From NCBI GenBank assembly GCA_964475745.1, contig CAYYXO010000003.1, positions 1 through 48,722 on the forward strand: a DNA stretch of 48,722 bases. The letters are read 5' to 3'. The stretch comes from an uncultured Candidatus Saccharibacteria bacterium. Lineage in GTDB: Bacteria > Patescibacteriota > Minisyncoccia > UBA6257 > JAKLIH01. The notes below the pieces were generated by a model. It saw only the letters and a list, made by a program, of their open reading frames with translations. It searched no databases and was not told the origin of the DNA. Each line of letters begins with the position of its first letter. The first letter of the stretch is position 1. Position numbers and translations under genes: made by a program. Below are positions 611-48,722 of this stretch, piece after piece.

Positions 611-1285
611 ATGGCACAACATATTAATCCAATAATAAAAAGATTAGGCATAAACAAGAATTGAAATTCTCGTTGGTTTGATTTGGTAAATTTTCCTTGA
701 AAATTAGCAGAAGACCAAGTAATAAGAAAAGCTCTAGAGCCTTTATTGTCTAAAGCCCACTATCAAAATGTTGATCTTGAAAGAAAAGGAGACAGAATTA
801 ATATTACTATTTTTTCTGCTAAGCCAGGTATGATTATCAAGCACAAAGGAGAAGGTTTGGACGAGGCTAAAAAAATCATTGAAAAAGCCGTAGTAAAATT
901 TAGAAAGAAAGAAAGAATAAACAATGCTTTTAGCCTAAGTATAAACATCGAAGAGGTTAGAAAGCCTTATTTATCCGCTCAAATTGTTGCCTTTGATCTT
1001 AGAGATGACCTCCAAAAAAGAATTTCTTATAGAAAAACCATCAAAAAATATTTAGAAAGAATTATGTCCAATCGAGAAGTAAAGGGTGCTAAAATTTATG
1101 TTACCGGAAGATTAGATGGTGCTGATATTGCTAGATCCGATTTTGTTAAAGATGGTAAATTACCTTTAAACACCTTAAGAGCCAATATTGATTATGCTTC
1201 AATTCCAGCTTATTGTACTTATGGCAAGATTGGGATAAAGGTATGAATCTACAAAGGAGAAACTTTTAATAACACCAAAAAATAA
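611..1285 (+). CDS. rpsC: 30S ribosomal protein S3 (3 in-frame TGA=Trp)
   Basis: MAQHINP..RLGINKN[TGA 662]NSRWF; GRLDGADIAR; YGKIGIKV[TGA 1244]IYKGE; TAA 1283-1285. Confidence 0.96.
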
Positions 1286-1319
1286 TCAAGTTAATTAATA
1301 ACACTAACAAACAAGTATT

Positions 1320-1730
1320 ATGCTTACTCCAAAAAGAACCAAACATCGAAAAATGCACAAAGGAAGAGGTTTAAAGCGCAACTTTGAAAGTCGCGGTGTT
1401 GATCTTGAATATGGTGCTTATGGTATTTGCAGTATTGACAACAAACGCATTACTAGTCGTCAGATTGAATCTGCTCGTAGAGTTCTCTTGAGATTTATTA
1501 GAAAAGGTGGAAAATTATGAATAAGAGTTTTTCCTGATAAACCTATTACCAAGAAGCCAGCTGAAGTTCCTATGGGTGGCGGCAAAGGAGATGTTGATCA
1601 TTATGTTTTTCAAGTTAGGCCAGGTCGCATTATTTTTGAGCTTGACGGTATTGCCGAAAGTGATGCCATGAAAGCTTTAAAACAAATCAGCTATAAGCTT
1701 CCTTTTAGAACAAAAATAATTAAACGATAG
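1320..1730 (+). CDS. rplP: 50S ribosomal protein L16
   Basis: [15 protein letters not shown][TGA 1518][26 protein letters not shown] 1728-1730. Confidence 0.97.
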
Positions 1731-1734
1731 TTTT

Positions 1735-1917
1735 ATGAAAATGAAAGAACTTAGCAAAAAAGATGAAAAATCTTTAAAACAAATTCTTTTAGAGCAGAAA
1801 AAAAAGTTAAATGATTTAATTTTATCTGCTAGATTTGGTAAAATAAAGAATTTTAATGAAATAGCAGAAGCCAAAAAAACTATCGCCCGTGTTTTAACAA
1901 TTCTTAATAAAAAATAA
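1735..1917 (+). CDS. rpmC: 50S ribosomal protein L29
   Basis: 60 aa, KKTIARVLTIL C-terminal motif, between rplP and rpsQ. Confidence 0.9.
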   Translation: MKMKELSKKDEKSLKQILLEQKKKLNDLILSARFGKIKNFNEIAEAKKTIARVLTILNKK

Positions 1918-1929
1918 TTTTTCTGTCTT

Positions 1930-2184
1930 ATGAACAAATTGAAAACACAAAAAAGACAATTAACTGGTGTGGTGGTGTCAAACAAAATGATGCTTACAGC
2001 TGTAGTAGAAGTTACTCGGCTTAAAGAACATCCTTTATATCACAAACATTACAAAACATCAAAAAGATATAAAGCACACAACCCTGACAATAAGTTTCAA
2101 ACAGGCGACAAAGTTATTATTGAAGAAACACGTCCATTGTCTAAAGATAAAAGCTGAAAAATTCTTGAAAAACTCAGTTATTAA
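1930..2184 (+). CDS. rpsQ: 30S ribosomal protein S17
   Basis: [34 protein letters not shown][TGA 2155]KIL; TAA 2182-2184. Confidence 0.96.
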
Positions 2185-2190
2185 ACGTTC

Positions 2191-44911: not shown

Positions 44912-44941
44912 AATTATTAATAAAAAATTTAAATATTTACT

Positions 44942-46882
44942 ATGGGAAAGATACTAGGTATAGATTTGGGAACTACTTTTTCAGAAATGGCTATTTTCCA
45001 AAATGGTCAACCTCAAATTATTGAAAGTCAAGAGGGAGAAAGAACGGTTCCTTCAGTTGTGGCTATTGCTAAAAATGGCGAAAGATTAGTTGGCACTTTA
45101 GCTAGAAGACAAGCTATTACTAATCCTCAAAATACAGTTTTTTCAGTAAAAAGGTTTATTGGGCGTCGTTTTTCTGACAAAGAAGTTCAAGATGACAAAG
45201 CTTCTCTTCCCTATGAAATTAGAGAATCACAAAGTAAGGGCATTGAAGTTAAATTAGGAGATAAGTGGCTCAAACCTGAAGAAATTTCAGCTATGGTTTT
45301 ACAAAAATTAAAAGCAGACGCAGAAGCAAAGCTAGGAGAAAAAATAGAAGAAGCTATTATCACTGTGCCAGCTTATTTTAATGATTCGCAAAGGCAAGCT
45401 ACAAAAAACGCAGGAGAAATTGCTGGGCTTAAGGTGTTAAGAATACTTAATGAGCCAACTGCAGCCGCTGTTCTTTATGGCTTCAATAAACATCAATCTT
45501 CAAAGGTTTTAGTTTATGATTTTGGTGGAGGAACTTTAGATGTTTCTATTATTGAAGTAGTAAATGCCAGCGATGAATCTGCTGGAGAAAATATTAATGT
45601 TTTAGGAACCGGCGGAGATACTCATTTGGGTGGAGATGATTTTGATCAAAAAATTATCTATCATATTTTATCAGAATTTAAAAAAGAAGAAGGAGTTGAT
45701 CTCAAAGATGATAAATTGGCTCTTCAAAGAATTAAAGATGCCGCTGAAAAAGCAAAAAAGGAACTATCCAATGTAACCGAAACAGAAATTAATTTACCAT
45801 TTATTACCTCAACAAGTGATGGTCCAAAGCATTTGGTTATGAAATTAACTCGTGCAAAATTTGAAGAGCTCATTAAAGATTTAATTGAAAGGTCAATAGA
45901 AAGAACAGAGCTAACCTTAAAAGAAATTCAATTAAATCCAGAAGATATTTCAGATGTGATTTTGGTTGGTGGAACCACTCGTATTCCAGCGATTCAAAAA
46001 AGAATTAAAGAAGTGTTTAAAAAAGAACCAAAGAAAGATATTAATCCCGATGAAGTTGTTGCTATGGGCGCCGCTATTGTTGCTGGCTCACTTCAAGGAG
46101 AAGTAAAAGATTTACTACTTCTAGATGTAACCCCGCTATCTTTATCTATTGAAACTATGGGTGGTGTTGCCACACAAATGATACCAAAAAATACCTACAT
46201 CCCAACAACAAAATCAGAAATTTTTTCAACTGCTGCCGACAACCAGCCGGCCGTAGAAGTGCATGTCTTGCAAGGAGAAAGACCGATGGCTCAAGACAAC
46301 AAAACCTTGGCTAAGTTTGTTTTAGATGGTATTCCTCCTGCCTCTCGCGGCACCCCTAAGATTGAAGTTACTTTTGATATTGATAAAAATGGCATTTTAA
46401 ATGTTACTGCTAAAGATCAGGCCACCAATAAAACTCAATCAGTAAAAATTGAAGCAACCACTGACCTAACTAAAGAACAAATAGAGCAAATGAAAGCAGA
46501 AGCAGAAAAATTTGCCACTGATGACAAAAAAAGAAAAGAATATATTGAGGTTAAAAATCAGGCAGAAAACCTAACTTACCAATCAGAGTCAAGCTTAAAA
46601 GAAAATCAAGATAAAATACCAGCAGAACTAAAAGAAAAAATTGAAGAAAAAACAAAAATATTAAAAGATATTTGCCAAAAAGAAATTAGCAATGTTAATC
46701 TCGAGGAAAACACCGAATTGATTAAAAAAGGCATTGAAGATTTATCAAGTGAATTAACAGAAATTGGCAAAAATATTTATGCCAAACAAGAAGATCAAAA
46801 CAAGGCTGAAGCAACTGATAAAGAAAAAGAGCCTTCTGGCCAAAAACAAGAACCAATAGACACTAATTTCGAAGAAAAATAA
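44942..46882 (+). CDS. dnaK: Chaperone DnaK
   Basis: [43 protein letters not shown]. Confidence 0.98.
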
Positions 46883-46886
46883 TTTT

Positions 46887-46917
46887 AAGAAGCCAGGCTA
46901 ATCACTTGGCTTCTTTT
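46887..46917 (+). terminator. Terminator after dnaK
   Basis: AAGAAGCCAGG-7 nt-CTTGGCTTCTT then TT. Confidence 0.7.
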
Positions 46918-46988
46918 AGAGGCATAAGCTCATTGCAAAAAAAGTTAATTTTTGTTACACTTTCAGTAATAAAATTAACCTAATTATC

Positions 46989-48002
46989 ATGTCAAAATTA
47001 TTACAGTTTTTAAGTAAAAGAAAAAATATCAACCAAGACTCAATCAGAACATTACACCCAGACGATCTTTTCACCAACTGAACTTTTATTAAACAAAATA
47101 TTTTAGGAGGGCTTAGTTGTTTTTTTGTTTTGCTTTTTAGTAATGTTTTAAAAACATTATTAGAAGCAAGATATTTTAACATTTGGATTCAATTACAAAT
47201 CTTGATTTTATTTGTGCTTAGCCTAGGCTTTTTTAGTTTAACCCTGTTTTTTCTTAAAAAAAGACTTTTGCTAGGCTGGTCATTAGGTTTTATTGTTAGC
47301 TCTCTAGTTCTTTTTATTGATAAACTTCCTTATCAAAATATCTTTTTCTATATTTTTCTATCGGCATCTTTTTTGTTATTTTTATTTGCTAGCTATCAAT
47401 ATAAAAAGACCAACGAAACTTTTTTAAAGTTTAATTGAAAAATAATTTTTCAATCAGGTTTTGTCTACCAGTTTTTTGGCTTAATGATGATTTTAATTAG
47501 TATGATAGCTTTTTCATATGTCAAAATAGATCGTCAAACTATTGACGGTGCCAAAACAGGCAATATCATCAATAATGTTATTGATTATTGAGCTAAAAGT
47601 TCTCCAGATTCTTTTTTGAATAAAAATTTTGAAACAGCAGTGGATAATTTTGTAACTCAAAATAATTTCCTTTCTAGTTTTCAAGCCCAATATTCAGTTT
47701 TAGGTTTGTCAGTTAGTAATGTTTTTGCGGACAACATTAAAAATATGTTTAACACTAGCTTTGATGTAAAAGCCAATGTTTCAAAGATTTTAGTTGATTT
47801 TTTTAATCAAGCTTCTCAAGCAACCAAAGCCATTGTTACTGGGCTGTTTCTCTGGTTTATTTTAAGCATTATTGGCTTTACTTTGTTTTTCTCAAAAATA
47901 CTTGTTTACTATTTTAGTCAATTAATTATTTATGCTTTAGTGTGACTTGGTTTTTTATCTTTAAAAGAGCGCCCAGCCACTAAAGAAGATTTGATTTTGT
48001 AA
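46989..48002 (+). CDS. Polytopic membrane protein of unknown function (337 aa)
   Basis: One open frame under table 4 (4 TGA) joining two code-11 fragments; several hydrophobic helices; candidate promoter TTGCAA(46933)-17-TACACT. Confidence 0.8.
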
Positions 48003-48030
48003 AGGTTTTTAAAAATTTTAAACTTTCAGT

Positions 48031-48722
48031 ATGTCAGAGTCCAAAGATTATTATAAAATACTTGGTGTTTCCGAAAACTCAACAGAAAAAGAAATAAAAG
48101 ATTCTTTTCATAAACTAGCTTTTAAATATCATCCTGATAGACCTAATGGTGATGAAAAAAAATTTAAAGAAATAAATGAAGCTTTTCAGATTCTTGGCAA
48201 TAAAGAAAAAAGAGAACAATATGATAATATGAAAAAATATGGCTTTCCTAGTGGCGGTTTTCCTGGCGGACAAGCTTCGGGTTTTAATTGATCCAATACT
48301 GGTTTCGATGGTTTTGGTGATTTTAATGATATTTTTAGCTCCTTTTTTAATCAAAATCGCAATAATGATCCTCGTTATACCAGATATGTTCAAAACGACG
48401 ACATTGAAATGGTAGCTAATCTCACTTTGAAAGAATCTTATCTTGGAGTAAAAAAAGAAATTGTTTTTAAAAGAGATATTTTTTGTAGTGATTGTTCAGG
48501 CAAAGGATATCAAAAAGATATTCAATTAAAAACTTGTACAAATTGCCAAGGAAAGGGGGTAATTGAAAAAACTAAAAAAGTTCCTTTTTTTGGATCAGTA
48601 ATTGAAAAAGTTTATTGTGACAAATGTGATGGCGAGGGTAAAGTGCCTGATAAAAAATGCCCGACTTGTCAAGGTAAAAAATATATTACTGAAACTAAAA
48701 AAGAAACTATTGAAATACCAGC
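48031..48722 (+). CDS. dnaJ: Chaperone DnaJ (truncated by window end)
   Basis: KDYYKILGV; HPD; G/F region with TGA 48289; four CxxCxGxG-type repeats. Confidence 0.95.

Follow-up and report, generated by a model that had tools for sequence, protein, structure and literature searches.

What does UGA mean in the 48,722-nucleotide stretch of DNA analysed here (the window; contig CAYYXO010000003.1 of assembly GCA_964475745.1), which is the entire contig C3 of the genome of an uncultured bacterium? Read with the standard bacterial code (table 11) the genes of the window are broken, and with TGA taken as a sense codon its plus strand is tiled nearly gap-free by open reading frames (ORFs). The codon counts, alignments, tRNA genes and release factor genes described below make us nearly certain that the organism uses genetic code 4, in which UGA encodes tryptophan and only UAA and UAG terminate. 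The genome of the window (hereafter G000) comprises 545,941 bases in 21 contigs with a G+C content of about 31%, and CheckM places its completeness at 99% and its contamination at 0.26%. We compared it with G070, a complete, single-contig, standard-code genome of 561,860 bases from the same order; other G-numbers denote sampled genomes, f1 is the family of the window in the GTDB taxonomy, and g1 to g5 are the f1 genera.

When only TAA and TAG are allowed to stop a frame, the 51 window ORFs of at least 80 amino acids contain 82 in-frame TGA, spread over 35 ORFs, against 28 TGG. The 61-amino-acid gene of ribosomal protein S14 contributes one more, which brings the window to 83 TGA in 36 ORFs and agrees closely with the first-pass annotation, an earlier reading of this DNA that had reported about 80 TGA in about 35 genes. 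Its further statement that no conserved gene ends in TGA is borne out both in the window, where the 50 complete ORFs of at least 80 amino acids stop at TAA (43) or TAG (7) and none at TGA, and genome-wide, where the 277 complete ORFs with homolog support stop at TAA (239) or TAG (38) and again none at TGA. Coverage of the genome by ORFs of at least 100 amino acids rises from 61.7% under table 11 to 89.2% when TGA is read through, and the control in which TAG is read through instead gives 64.6%. TGA makes up about three quarters of the tryptophan codons in G000. We also found the stretch 20818-26900 in contigs of five sludge-metagenome runs, and in the contigs of four sludge runs its 13 TGA sites show no other letter where they are covered, the sole difference from the window being at 26296, outside the TGA sites; these are Logan contigs with a depth of 2-6 and one of the runs may be the source of the assembly, so the comparison shows only that nothing contradicts the letters.

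The amino acid that UGA encodes was read from BLASTP alignments of the stop-to-stop ORFs of G000, with TGA marked as X, against G070. These gave 336 matches with a mean identity of 44%, of which 51 were antisense shadow ORFs and were dropped by overlap to leave 285 gene pairs; the unfiltered tally agrees. Among the 496 TGA aligned across these pairs are 215 on Trp, 45 on Phe, 40 on Leu, 26 on Tyr, 24 on gaps and 13 on Gly, while TGG, taken as a control, lies on Trp in 82 of 163 cases. With substitution profiles from the same alignments, the Trp profile is ahead of its runner-up, Tyr, by 532 log-likelihood units. All other testable sense codons retain their standard meaning; the leave-one-codon-out test is uninformative for ATG and TGG, the sole codons of their residues, and their apparent departures are artefacts. 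The window alone, with three antisense shadow ORFs excluded, has 21 of 53 aligned TGA on Trp and 2 on Gly. In the UvrA gene, TGA sites of the window are in five cases TGG in some member of the family, and the same positions are Trp, Tyr or Phe in standard-code relatives of the order.

The first-pass annotation had placed 13 individual TGA sites at known tryptophan positions, and 11 of these do lie on Trp. Ten are on Trp in G070, namely S3 1244, L16 1518, all three sites of MraZ, SecA 21235, MraY 26799, RRF 36918, UvrA 33041 and 42005 in the PBP2-type penicillin-binding protein (PBP), and the eleventh, S14 3773, is on Trp in solved S14 chains. The remaining two do not: SecA 21910 lies on Tyr in G070, and MurB 14243 falls on Val in G070 and on Lys, Arg and Lys in the three best solved MurB chains, and is thus not a conserved Trp in these comparators.

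A tRNA suited to this reading is present in the genome. ARAGORN finds 41 tRNAs and a transfer-messenger RNA (tmRNA) in G000, and one of the tRNAs, which the program labels 'SeC' from the anticodon alone, carries the anticodon UCA. Its gene lies outside the window (contig C8, 2069-2143, minus strand) and folds into an ordinary cloverleaf with A1-U72 and the discriminator G73, and the lower four pairs of its anticodon stem are those of the tRNA-Trp(CCA) of the same genome, so that G000 holds two tRNA-Trp genes, CCA and UCA. The three tRNA-Gly genes of G000 all start with G1, C2 and G3 and have U73. By the criteria for Trp and Gly acceptor identity set out in section 18 of PMC8629427 (this and the other papers are cited from the portions of them available), the tRNA(UCA) is predicted to accept Trp rather than Gly. 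The claim made at first pass that UGA is read as Trp and not as Gly is thereby upheld by the alignment tally, by the exchange of TGA and TGG in UvrA and by the tRNA identity elements. TrpRS, the tryptophanyl-tRNA synthetase that would charge both tRNA-Trp, is encoded in G000 as well, at C6:32560-33534, and its gene and that of RF1 each contain 3 in-frame TGA.

The same tRNA scan showed some further features. From G000 it returned a single tRNA-Pro and neither tRNA-Met nor tRNA-Cys nor tRNA-Arg(CCG), in spite of the 99% completeness; G070 has these tRNAs, and in G000 they are either lost in assembly gaps or unusual as genes. In G070 itself (C1:440167-441241, locus L036) it called a tRNA with anticodon UUA, which would read UAA; given a mismatch in the anticodon stem this call may be false. 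For MnmE and MnmG, known from many bacteria as modifiers of U34, a profile search of G000 gave no score above the cut-offs, and U34 of the tRNA-Trp(UCA) may be without the usual xm5 modification. This result bears on how a tRNA-Trp with U34 avoids the Cys codons UGU and UGC.

On the side of termination, the sole class-I release factor found in G000 is encoded by a single gene with a PCRF domain and has a P-T-T tripeptide, which we take to be the RF1 type, and a small ArfB-like protein is also encoded. None of the 12 family genomes reaches the cut-off of the prfB model; their best score, at most 262 bits, is at the level of RF1, and 73 of the 77 genomes sampled from other families score higher on this model than any family genome does. 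No tRNA(UCA) is present in G070, which has a prfB match of RF2 strength and in which TGA accounts for 22 of 285 stops. A search that the first-pass annotation had called for, for loss of prfB and for a tRNA-Trp(UCA), thus returned both in G000. Judged from its gene content, G000 has lost RF2 and kept RF1, and with RF2 lost no factor is left to recognise UGA as a stop.

The recoding extends through the family. The 12 species genomes and 5 genera of f1 all carry in-frame TGA in UvrA, SecA or MraY (12 of 12 genomes), and we found none in the 19 other families of a first sample. In a larger sample of the order (251 genomes, 32 families) the 9 family matches listed for MraY carry 6-9 TGA each, whereas the 141 listed matches from other families carry 0 (96 weaker matches lie outside those listed), and among the matches listed the other 31 families are without in-frame TGA. 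A SecA tree of 29 rows, from which G021 (frameshifts) and G011 (partial SecA) were left out, unites the 11 family rows in one clade with a Shimodaira-Hasegawa-like approximate likelihood ratio (SH-aLRT) support of 99, and inside the family it sets (g5, g3) beside (g2, (g1, g4)). Since all of the family is recoded, the family is one clade and its sister families are standard, the recoding arose once, at the base of f1, and separately from the change of UGA to Gly in Gracilibacteria and Absconditabacteria. An origin independent of that clade had been proposed at first pass, and the surrounding families without in-frame TGA support it. The gain of TGA over TGG then proceeded separately in the branches of f1: in the available sequence pieces of the 11 family genomes with enough sequence (G000 included) the share of TGA among Trp codons is 0.73-0.91 in g1 and g4, 0.64-0.76 in g3, 0.50 in g5 and 0.33 in g2, and in three outgroup genomes it is 0-0.01.

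One apparent case outside the family was rejected. G021 showed 6 TGA in the first extraction of its SecA, and tblastn revealed a frameshifted gene in which the TGA lie outside the true frame. The UvrA proteins of the order also differ in form, being about 950-990 amino acids long in the window, in g2-g4 and in G014, G017 and G018, and about 845 amino acids long, with a match to the query in two pieces, in G005 and most other families.

UGA as Trp in Patescibacteriota was published in 2026 and is not new. In the portion available, the Codetta screen of 2021 (PMC8629427) restricts UGA as Trp to four insect symbionts and the Mycoplasmatales/Entomoplasmatales and gives it as Gly for the phylum Patescibacteria; the accessible part of a 2026 review of the phylum (PMC13293708) still gives Gly as its sole recoding, and a preprint of 30 April 2026 (10.64898/2025.12.01.691617) counts, in what is available of it, three phyla with UGA as Trp, to which it adds a fourth. 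Fakih et al. (NAR, 20 April 2026; PMC13092985) described 'a new independent case' of UGA-to-Trp in the Patescibacteriota family JAKLIH01, which they place in order UBA6257 of class Minisyncoccia and of which they name GCA_028702045.1 and GCA_028691405.1 as members. [quoted passage not shown] The gTranslate paper (PMC13695967; preprint May 2026, PeerJ, 22 October 2026) adds 12 further JAKLIH01 genomes and 10 genomes of the genus GCA-2747955, and according to its accessible text the phylum is the first with tables 4, 11 and 25. The suggestion at first pass of a third code in this radiation was therefore correct and was already in print in these two papers.

[quoted passage not shown] The alternative that survives best keeps code 4 and makes f1 a third, unpublished UGA-to-Trp lineage of Patescibacteria, neither JAKLIH01 nor GCA-2747955. 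It draws on the lack of any JAKLIH-prefixed record among the 80 named loci of a DnaK scan, in which the only clearly recoded named locus (L085) is a co-assembly metagenome-assembled genome (MAG), and on GTDB release 232 being newer than the releases used in the two 2026 papers. However, the JAKLIH01 of the available text of PMC13092985 and PMC13695967 is likewise a family-level clade, recoded throughout, in a large Minisyncoccia order, and likewise has the tRNA-Trp(UCA) in some assemblies only, no RF2 and no UGA stops. GCA-2747955 is, in the accessible part of PMC13695967, of the same phylum, class and code and has a tRNA-Trp(UCA) and no prfB, but its recoding lies within one genus in which three genomes still use code 11, unlike the five fully recoded genera of f1. 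A third lineage is in our judgement unlikely, and as a novelty it would be weaker than a tRNA(UCA) invented twice, to which we return below.

Far less room is left for a dual UGA, read as Trp within genes and as a stop at some gene ends, or read through only in part. Termination that is independent of release factors or depends on context is known in some eukaryotes with a reassigned UGA, and 27 of 241 G000 ORFs extend at least 15 amino acids past their G070 homolog. Yet in these 241 gene pairs no TGA stands at the expected C-terminus, none is found 8 codons or fewer from where an extended ORF would be expected to end, and the median C-terminal length difference between G000 and G070 is 0; G000 has no RF2 to read UGA, and the available portion of PMC13092985 (section 19) likewise reports no UGA stops in JAKLIH01. 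We consider a dual meaning very improbable. Least probable of all, to a degree that we regard as negligible, is glycine (table 25), for although Gracilibacteria and Absconditabacteria belong to the same phylum and read-through of TGA alone cannot separate table 4 from table 25, only 13 of the 496 aligned TGA lie on Gly, whereas GGN codons do so in about two thirds of cases, Gly is outside the six best-fitting residues for TGA, the tRNA(UCA) has A1-U72 and G73 and not G1-C72, C2-G71 and G3-C70 with U73, and the sister families are standard-code, so that the lineage does not sit inside the table 25 clade.

Against code 4 with RF2 loss in the JAKLIH01 family, as we read the data, stand several points. 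More than half of the aligned TGA (57%) are off Trp in a comparator that is 44% identical; because TGG is equally off Trp (50%), we attribute this to divergence and not to another meaning. Among the runs listed for the stretch 20818-26900, none is an RNA run. G002 (68% complete) and G005 (94%) gave no release-factor match of any kind, so RF2 loss is not established for either individually, and four standard-code genomes (G012, G021, G060 and G080) also have no prfB match of RF2 strength, so an absent match is by itself no proof of recoding; MraY of G012, G021 and G080 has 0 TGA, and G060 gave no MraY match. Finally, f1 is equated with JAKLIH01 by fit of description only.

Within the family the Trp tRNA genes suggest more than one history. 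We aligned 18 of them from the family and one outgroup, 7 UCA and 11 CCA (relatives' loci L052-L057 and L165-L176). Six of the UCA genes, from g1, g2, g3 and g4, are of one type, and in five of these six genomes the UCA gene adjoins a Thr(GGU)-Tyr-Thr(UGU) cluster; in G002 it is elsewhere, and there as in the outgroup G070 the neighbour of this cluster is a CCA gene. G005 (g5) carries a UCA gene of the other type, whose T arm is shared only with the CCA gene of the same genome. A T arm that is unique to both genes of G005 points to a separate change of C34 to U in a recent duplicate. The older UCA type was not found in G005, and neither was the Thr-Tyr-Thr cluster, so its lack there may be an assembly gap. 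Beyond the tRNAs themselves, a synteny comparison of the regions that flank the Trp tRNA genes in G000, G002 and G005 showed nothing.

The UCA genes have a second feature in common. Position 27:43 is without a standard pair in 7 of 7 UCA genes (A/A, G/A, A/C or U/U), and the pair is retained in 10 of the 11 CCA genes and missing from that of G008. Because six of the seven UCA genes are related by descent, there are at most two independent cases of 27:43 loss. Should the loss be selected, it could be connected with the apparent absence of MnmE and MnmG. That f1 invented its UGA-reading tRNA twice, with a shortened anticodon stem going with it, is a possibility we put forward only tentatively and think doubtful, and we treat the second tRNA origin and the 27:43 pair as leads and not as results. 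In the available parts of the JAKLIH01 papers there is no mention of a second tRNA(UCA) origin, of an unpaired 27:43 or of the spread in TGA use among genera.

The mechanism is standard codon capture, with RF2 lost and a tRNA-Trp(UCA) gained. In the course that we propose, UGA would already have been a rare stop in an ancestor of low G+C content (compare G070, with its 22 of 285 stops), a copy of tRNA-Trp would next have mutated from C34 to U, RF2 would then have been lost, and AT pressure would since have turned TGG into TGA at rates that differ by genus. The Mycoplasmatales/Entomoplasmatales resemble G000 in reading UGA as Trp, in having a UCA beside a CCA tRNA-Trp, in the loss of RF2 and in their low G+C content and small genomes; however, they belong to another phylum, and G000 has the complete complement of genes for peptidoglycan and rod shape, with MnmE and MnmG not found. 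Gracilibacteria and Absconditabacteria (table 25) share with G000 the phylum, a reassigned UGA and the loss of RF2, but they insert Gly via a tRNA-Gly(UCA) where G000 has Trp via a tRNA-Trp(UCA). Independent UGA-to-Trp capture with loss of RF2 is also seen in the insect and protist endosymbionts Hodgkinia, Nasuia, Zinderia, Stammera, Fastidiosibacteraceae XS4, Pinguicoccus and Organicella, and in an Eggerthellaceae clade (10.64898/2025.12.01.691617, as available). These are of other phyla, and some are without a tRNA(UCA) and use tRNA-Trp(CCA), whereas G000 is a sludge Patescibacterium.

That the organism is one of the Patescibacteria, of the Parcubacteria type, is supported by its relatives and its gene content. 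Its closest named records come from MAGs that bear the labels Patescibacteria group, Parcubacteria, Candidatus Paceibacterota, Nealsonbacteria or Giovannonibacteria, some are co-assembly MAGs automatically labelled 'Saccharibacteria', and the assignment to phylum is made from named relatives together with the context of the order. Ribosomal protein L30 (PF00327) was not found in a profile search of G000 whose control matches 13 of 14 known genomes, and the spacing of the ORFs leaves no L30 gene between S5 (5195-5839) and L15 (5849-6337), two names inferred from gene order only. The missing L30, the 546-kb genome and the named relatives agree with the Parcubacteria-like placement of the first-pass annotation, and its exclusion of a Mollicute stands with MurB, MurF, a MurC-like ligase, MraY, two PBPs, a DD-carboxypeptidase, MreB and MreC in the window. 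Gene names were checked with NCBIfam and Pfam. The wall and shape genes in full are MurB, MraZ, RsmH, the FtsI-like PBP, MurF, the DD-carboxypeptidase, MraY, the MurC-like ligase, MreB, MreC and the PBP2-type transpeptidase, and the presence of this mur, mra, mre and PBP set indicates that the organism makes a peptidoglycan wall. Housekeeping genes of the window encode S3, L16, S17, L5, L6, SecY, a P-type ATPase, a HAD phosphatase, Adk, ScpA/B, UvrA, GroEL, RRF, an M50 protease, DnaK and DnaJ.

The principal features follow along the window, all on the plus strand except where stated. The rpsC gene (S3; 611-1285; TIGR01009, 211.7 bits) has TGA at 662, 698 and 1244, of which the first and last lie on Trp in G070 and the second on Arg. 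In rplP (L16; 1320-1730; TIGR01164) the TGA at 1518 gives GGKLxIR against GGKLWIR in G070, and in rpsN (S14 type Z; 3593-3778) the final sense codon is the TGA at 3773, followed by TAA, its residue aligning to the terminal Trp of solved S14 type Z chains. Further on lie secY (6369-7640; TIGR00967; 2 TGA), a P-type cation ATPase of 905 amino acids (8190-10907; TIGR01494 and Ca-ATPase models; 9 TGA) and murB (13469-14440; NF010480, TIGR00179; 2 TGA). Between murB and the next gene, 14441-15347 is the sole long stretch of the window without a large ORF; within it a 59-amino-acid ORF (14602-14781) consists nearly entirely of Lys/Ala/Val repeats, like a histone-H1-type DNA-binding protein. The mraZ gene (15348-15806; TIGR00242) has TGA at 15516, 15717 and 15732, all on Trp in G070, and a PBP transpeptidase gene of the FtsI/SpoVD-like kind (0 TGA) and murF (1 TGA) occupy 17189-20212.

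The secA gene (20818-23394; NF009538, 1006 bits) has TGA at 21235, 21688, 21910 and 23095, which lie on Trp, Glu, Tyr and Trp in G070. A D-Ala-D-Ala carboxypeptidase-like gene (3 TGA) and mraY (6 TGA) span 24834-26900, and in mraY 5 of the 6 TGA lie on Trp and 1 on Tyr in G070; TGA is present in the MraY gene of each member of the family. The sole tRNA of the window, a tRNA-Val(CAC) found by ARAGORN, is at 27386-27460. Two small Cys-rich ORFs, at 27491-27886 (131 amino acids) and 29243-29662 (139 amino acids), match no family; by eye they share an N-terminal membrane helix and the motifs 'GY.IC.D..C' and 'C.F', look like paralogs, and bracket an MgtC/DUF4010 membrane protein. The MurC-like Mur ligase (29659-31116; Pfam Mur_ligase, Mur_ligase_M and Mur_ligase_C; 2 TGA) is on the minus strand. 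It is followed by uvrA (31310-34180; 7 TGA) and by groEL (1 TGA) and frr, the gene of RRF, at 34949-37268 (Pfam Cpn60_TCP1 and RRF), with the TGA at 36918 on Trp in G070. The block at 38428-42853 holds mreB (1 TGA), mreC (3), a membrane ORF (2) that is possibly mreD by position, and the PBP2-type transpeptidase gene (3, all of them on Trp in G070), on the basis of Pfam MreB_Mbl, MreC, PBP_dimer and Transpeptidase. At 44942-48720 stand dnaK (0 TGA, 1 TGG), a membrane ORF with 4 TGA and dnaJ (1 TGA), which runs past the contig end (Pfam HSP70 and DnaJ).

Free-standing lineages from the environment seldom change their genetic code, and according to the available text of PMC13695967 and PMC13092985 no bacterial phylum other than the Patescibacteria has three codes (4, 11 and 25), a point that the present result confirms and does not discover. 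It has a practical side, in that about 70% of the genes of G000 come out broken when annotated with table 11 (in the window, 36 of 52 ORFs carry TGA). What may be added to the published work is small and consists of the second origin of a tRNA-Trp(UCA) in one genus and the loss of 27:43. Were that loss under selection, an anticodon stem of 4 bp, which has lately been connected with the reading of UGA by tRNA-Trp(CCA), would be of importance for cognate UCA tRNAs too. The family f1 is, moreover, a good natural series for the spread of a captured codon, in which TGA makes up from a third to nine tenths of the Trp codons depending on the genus, and in which g5 carries what looks like a freshly made second suppressor tRNA.

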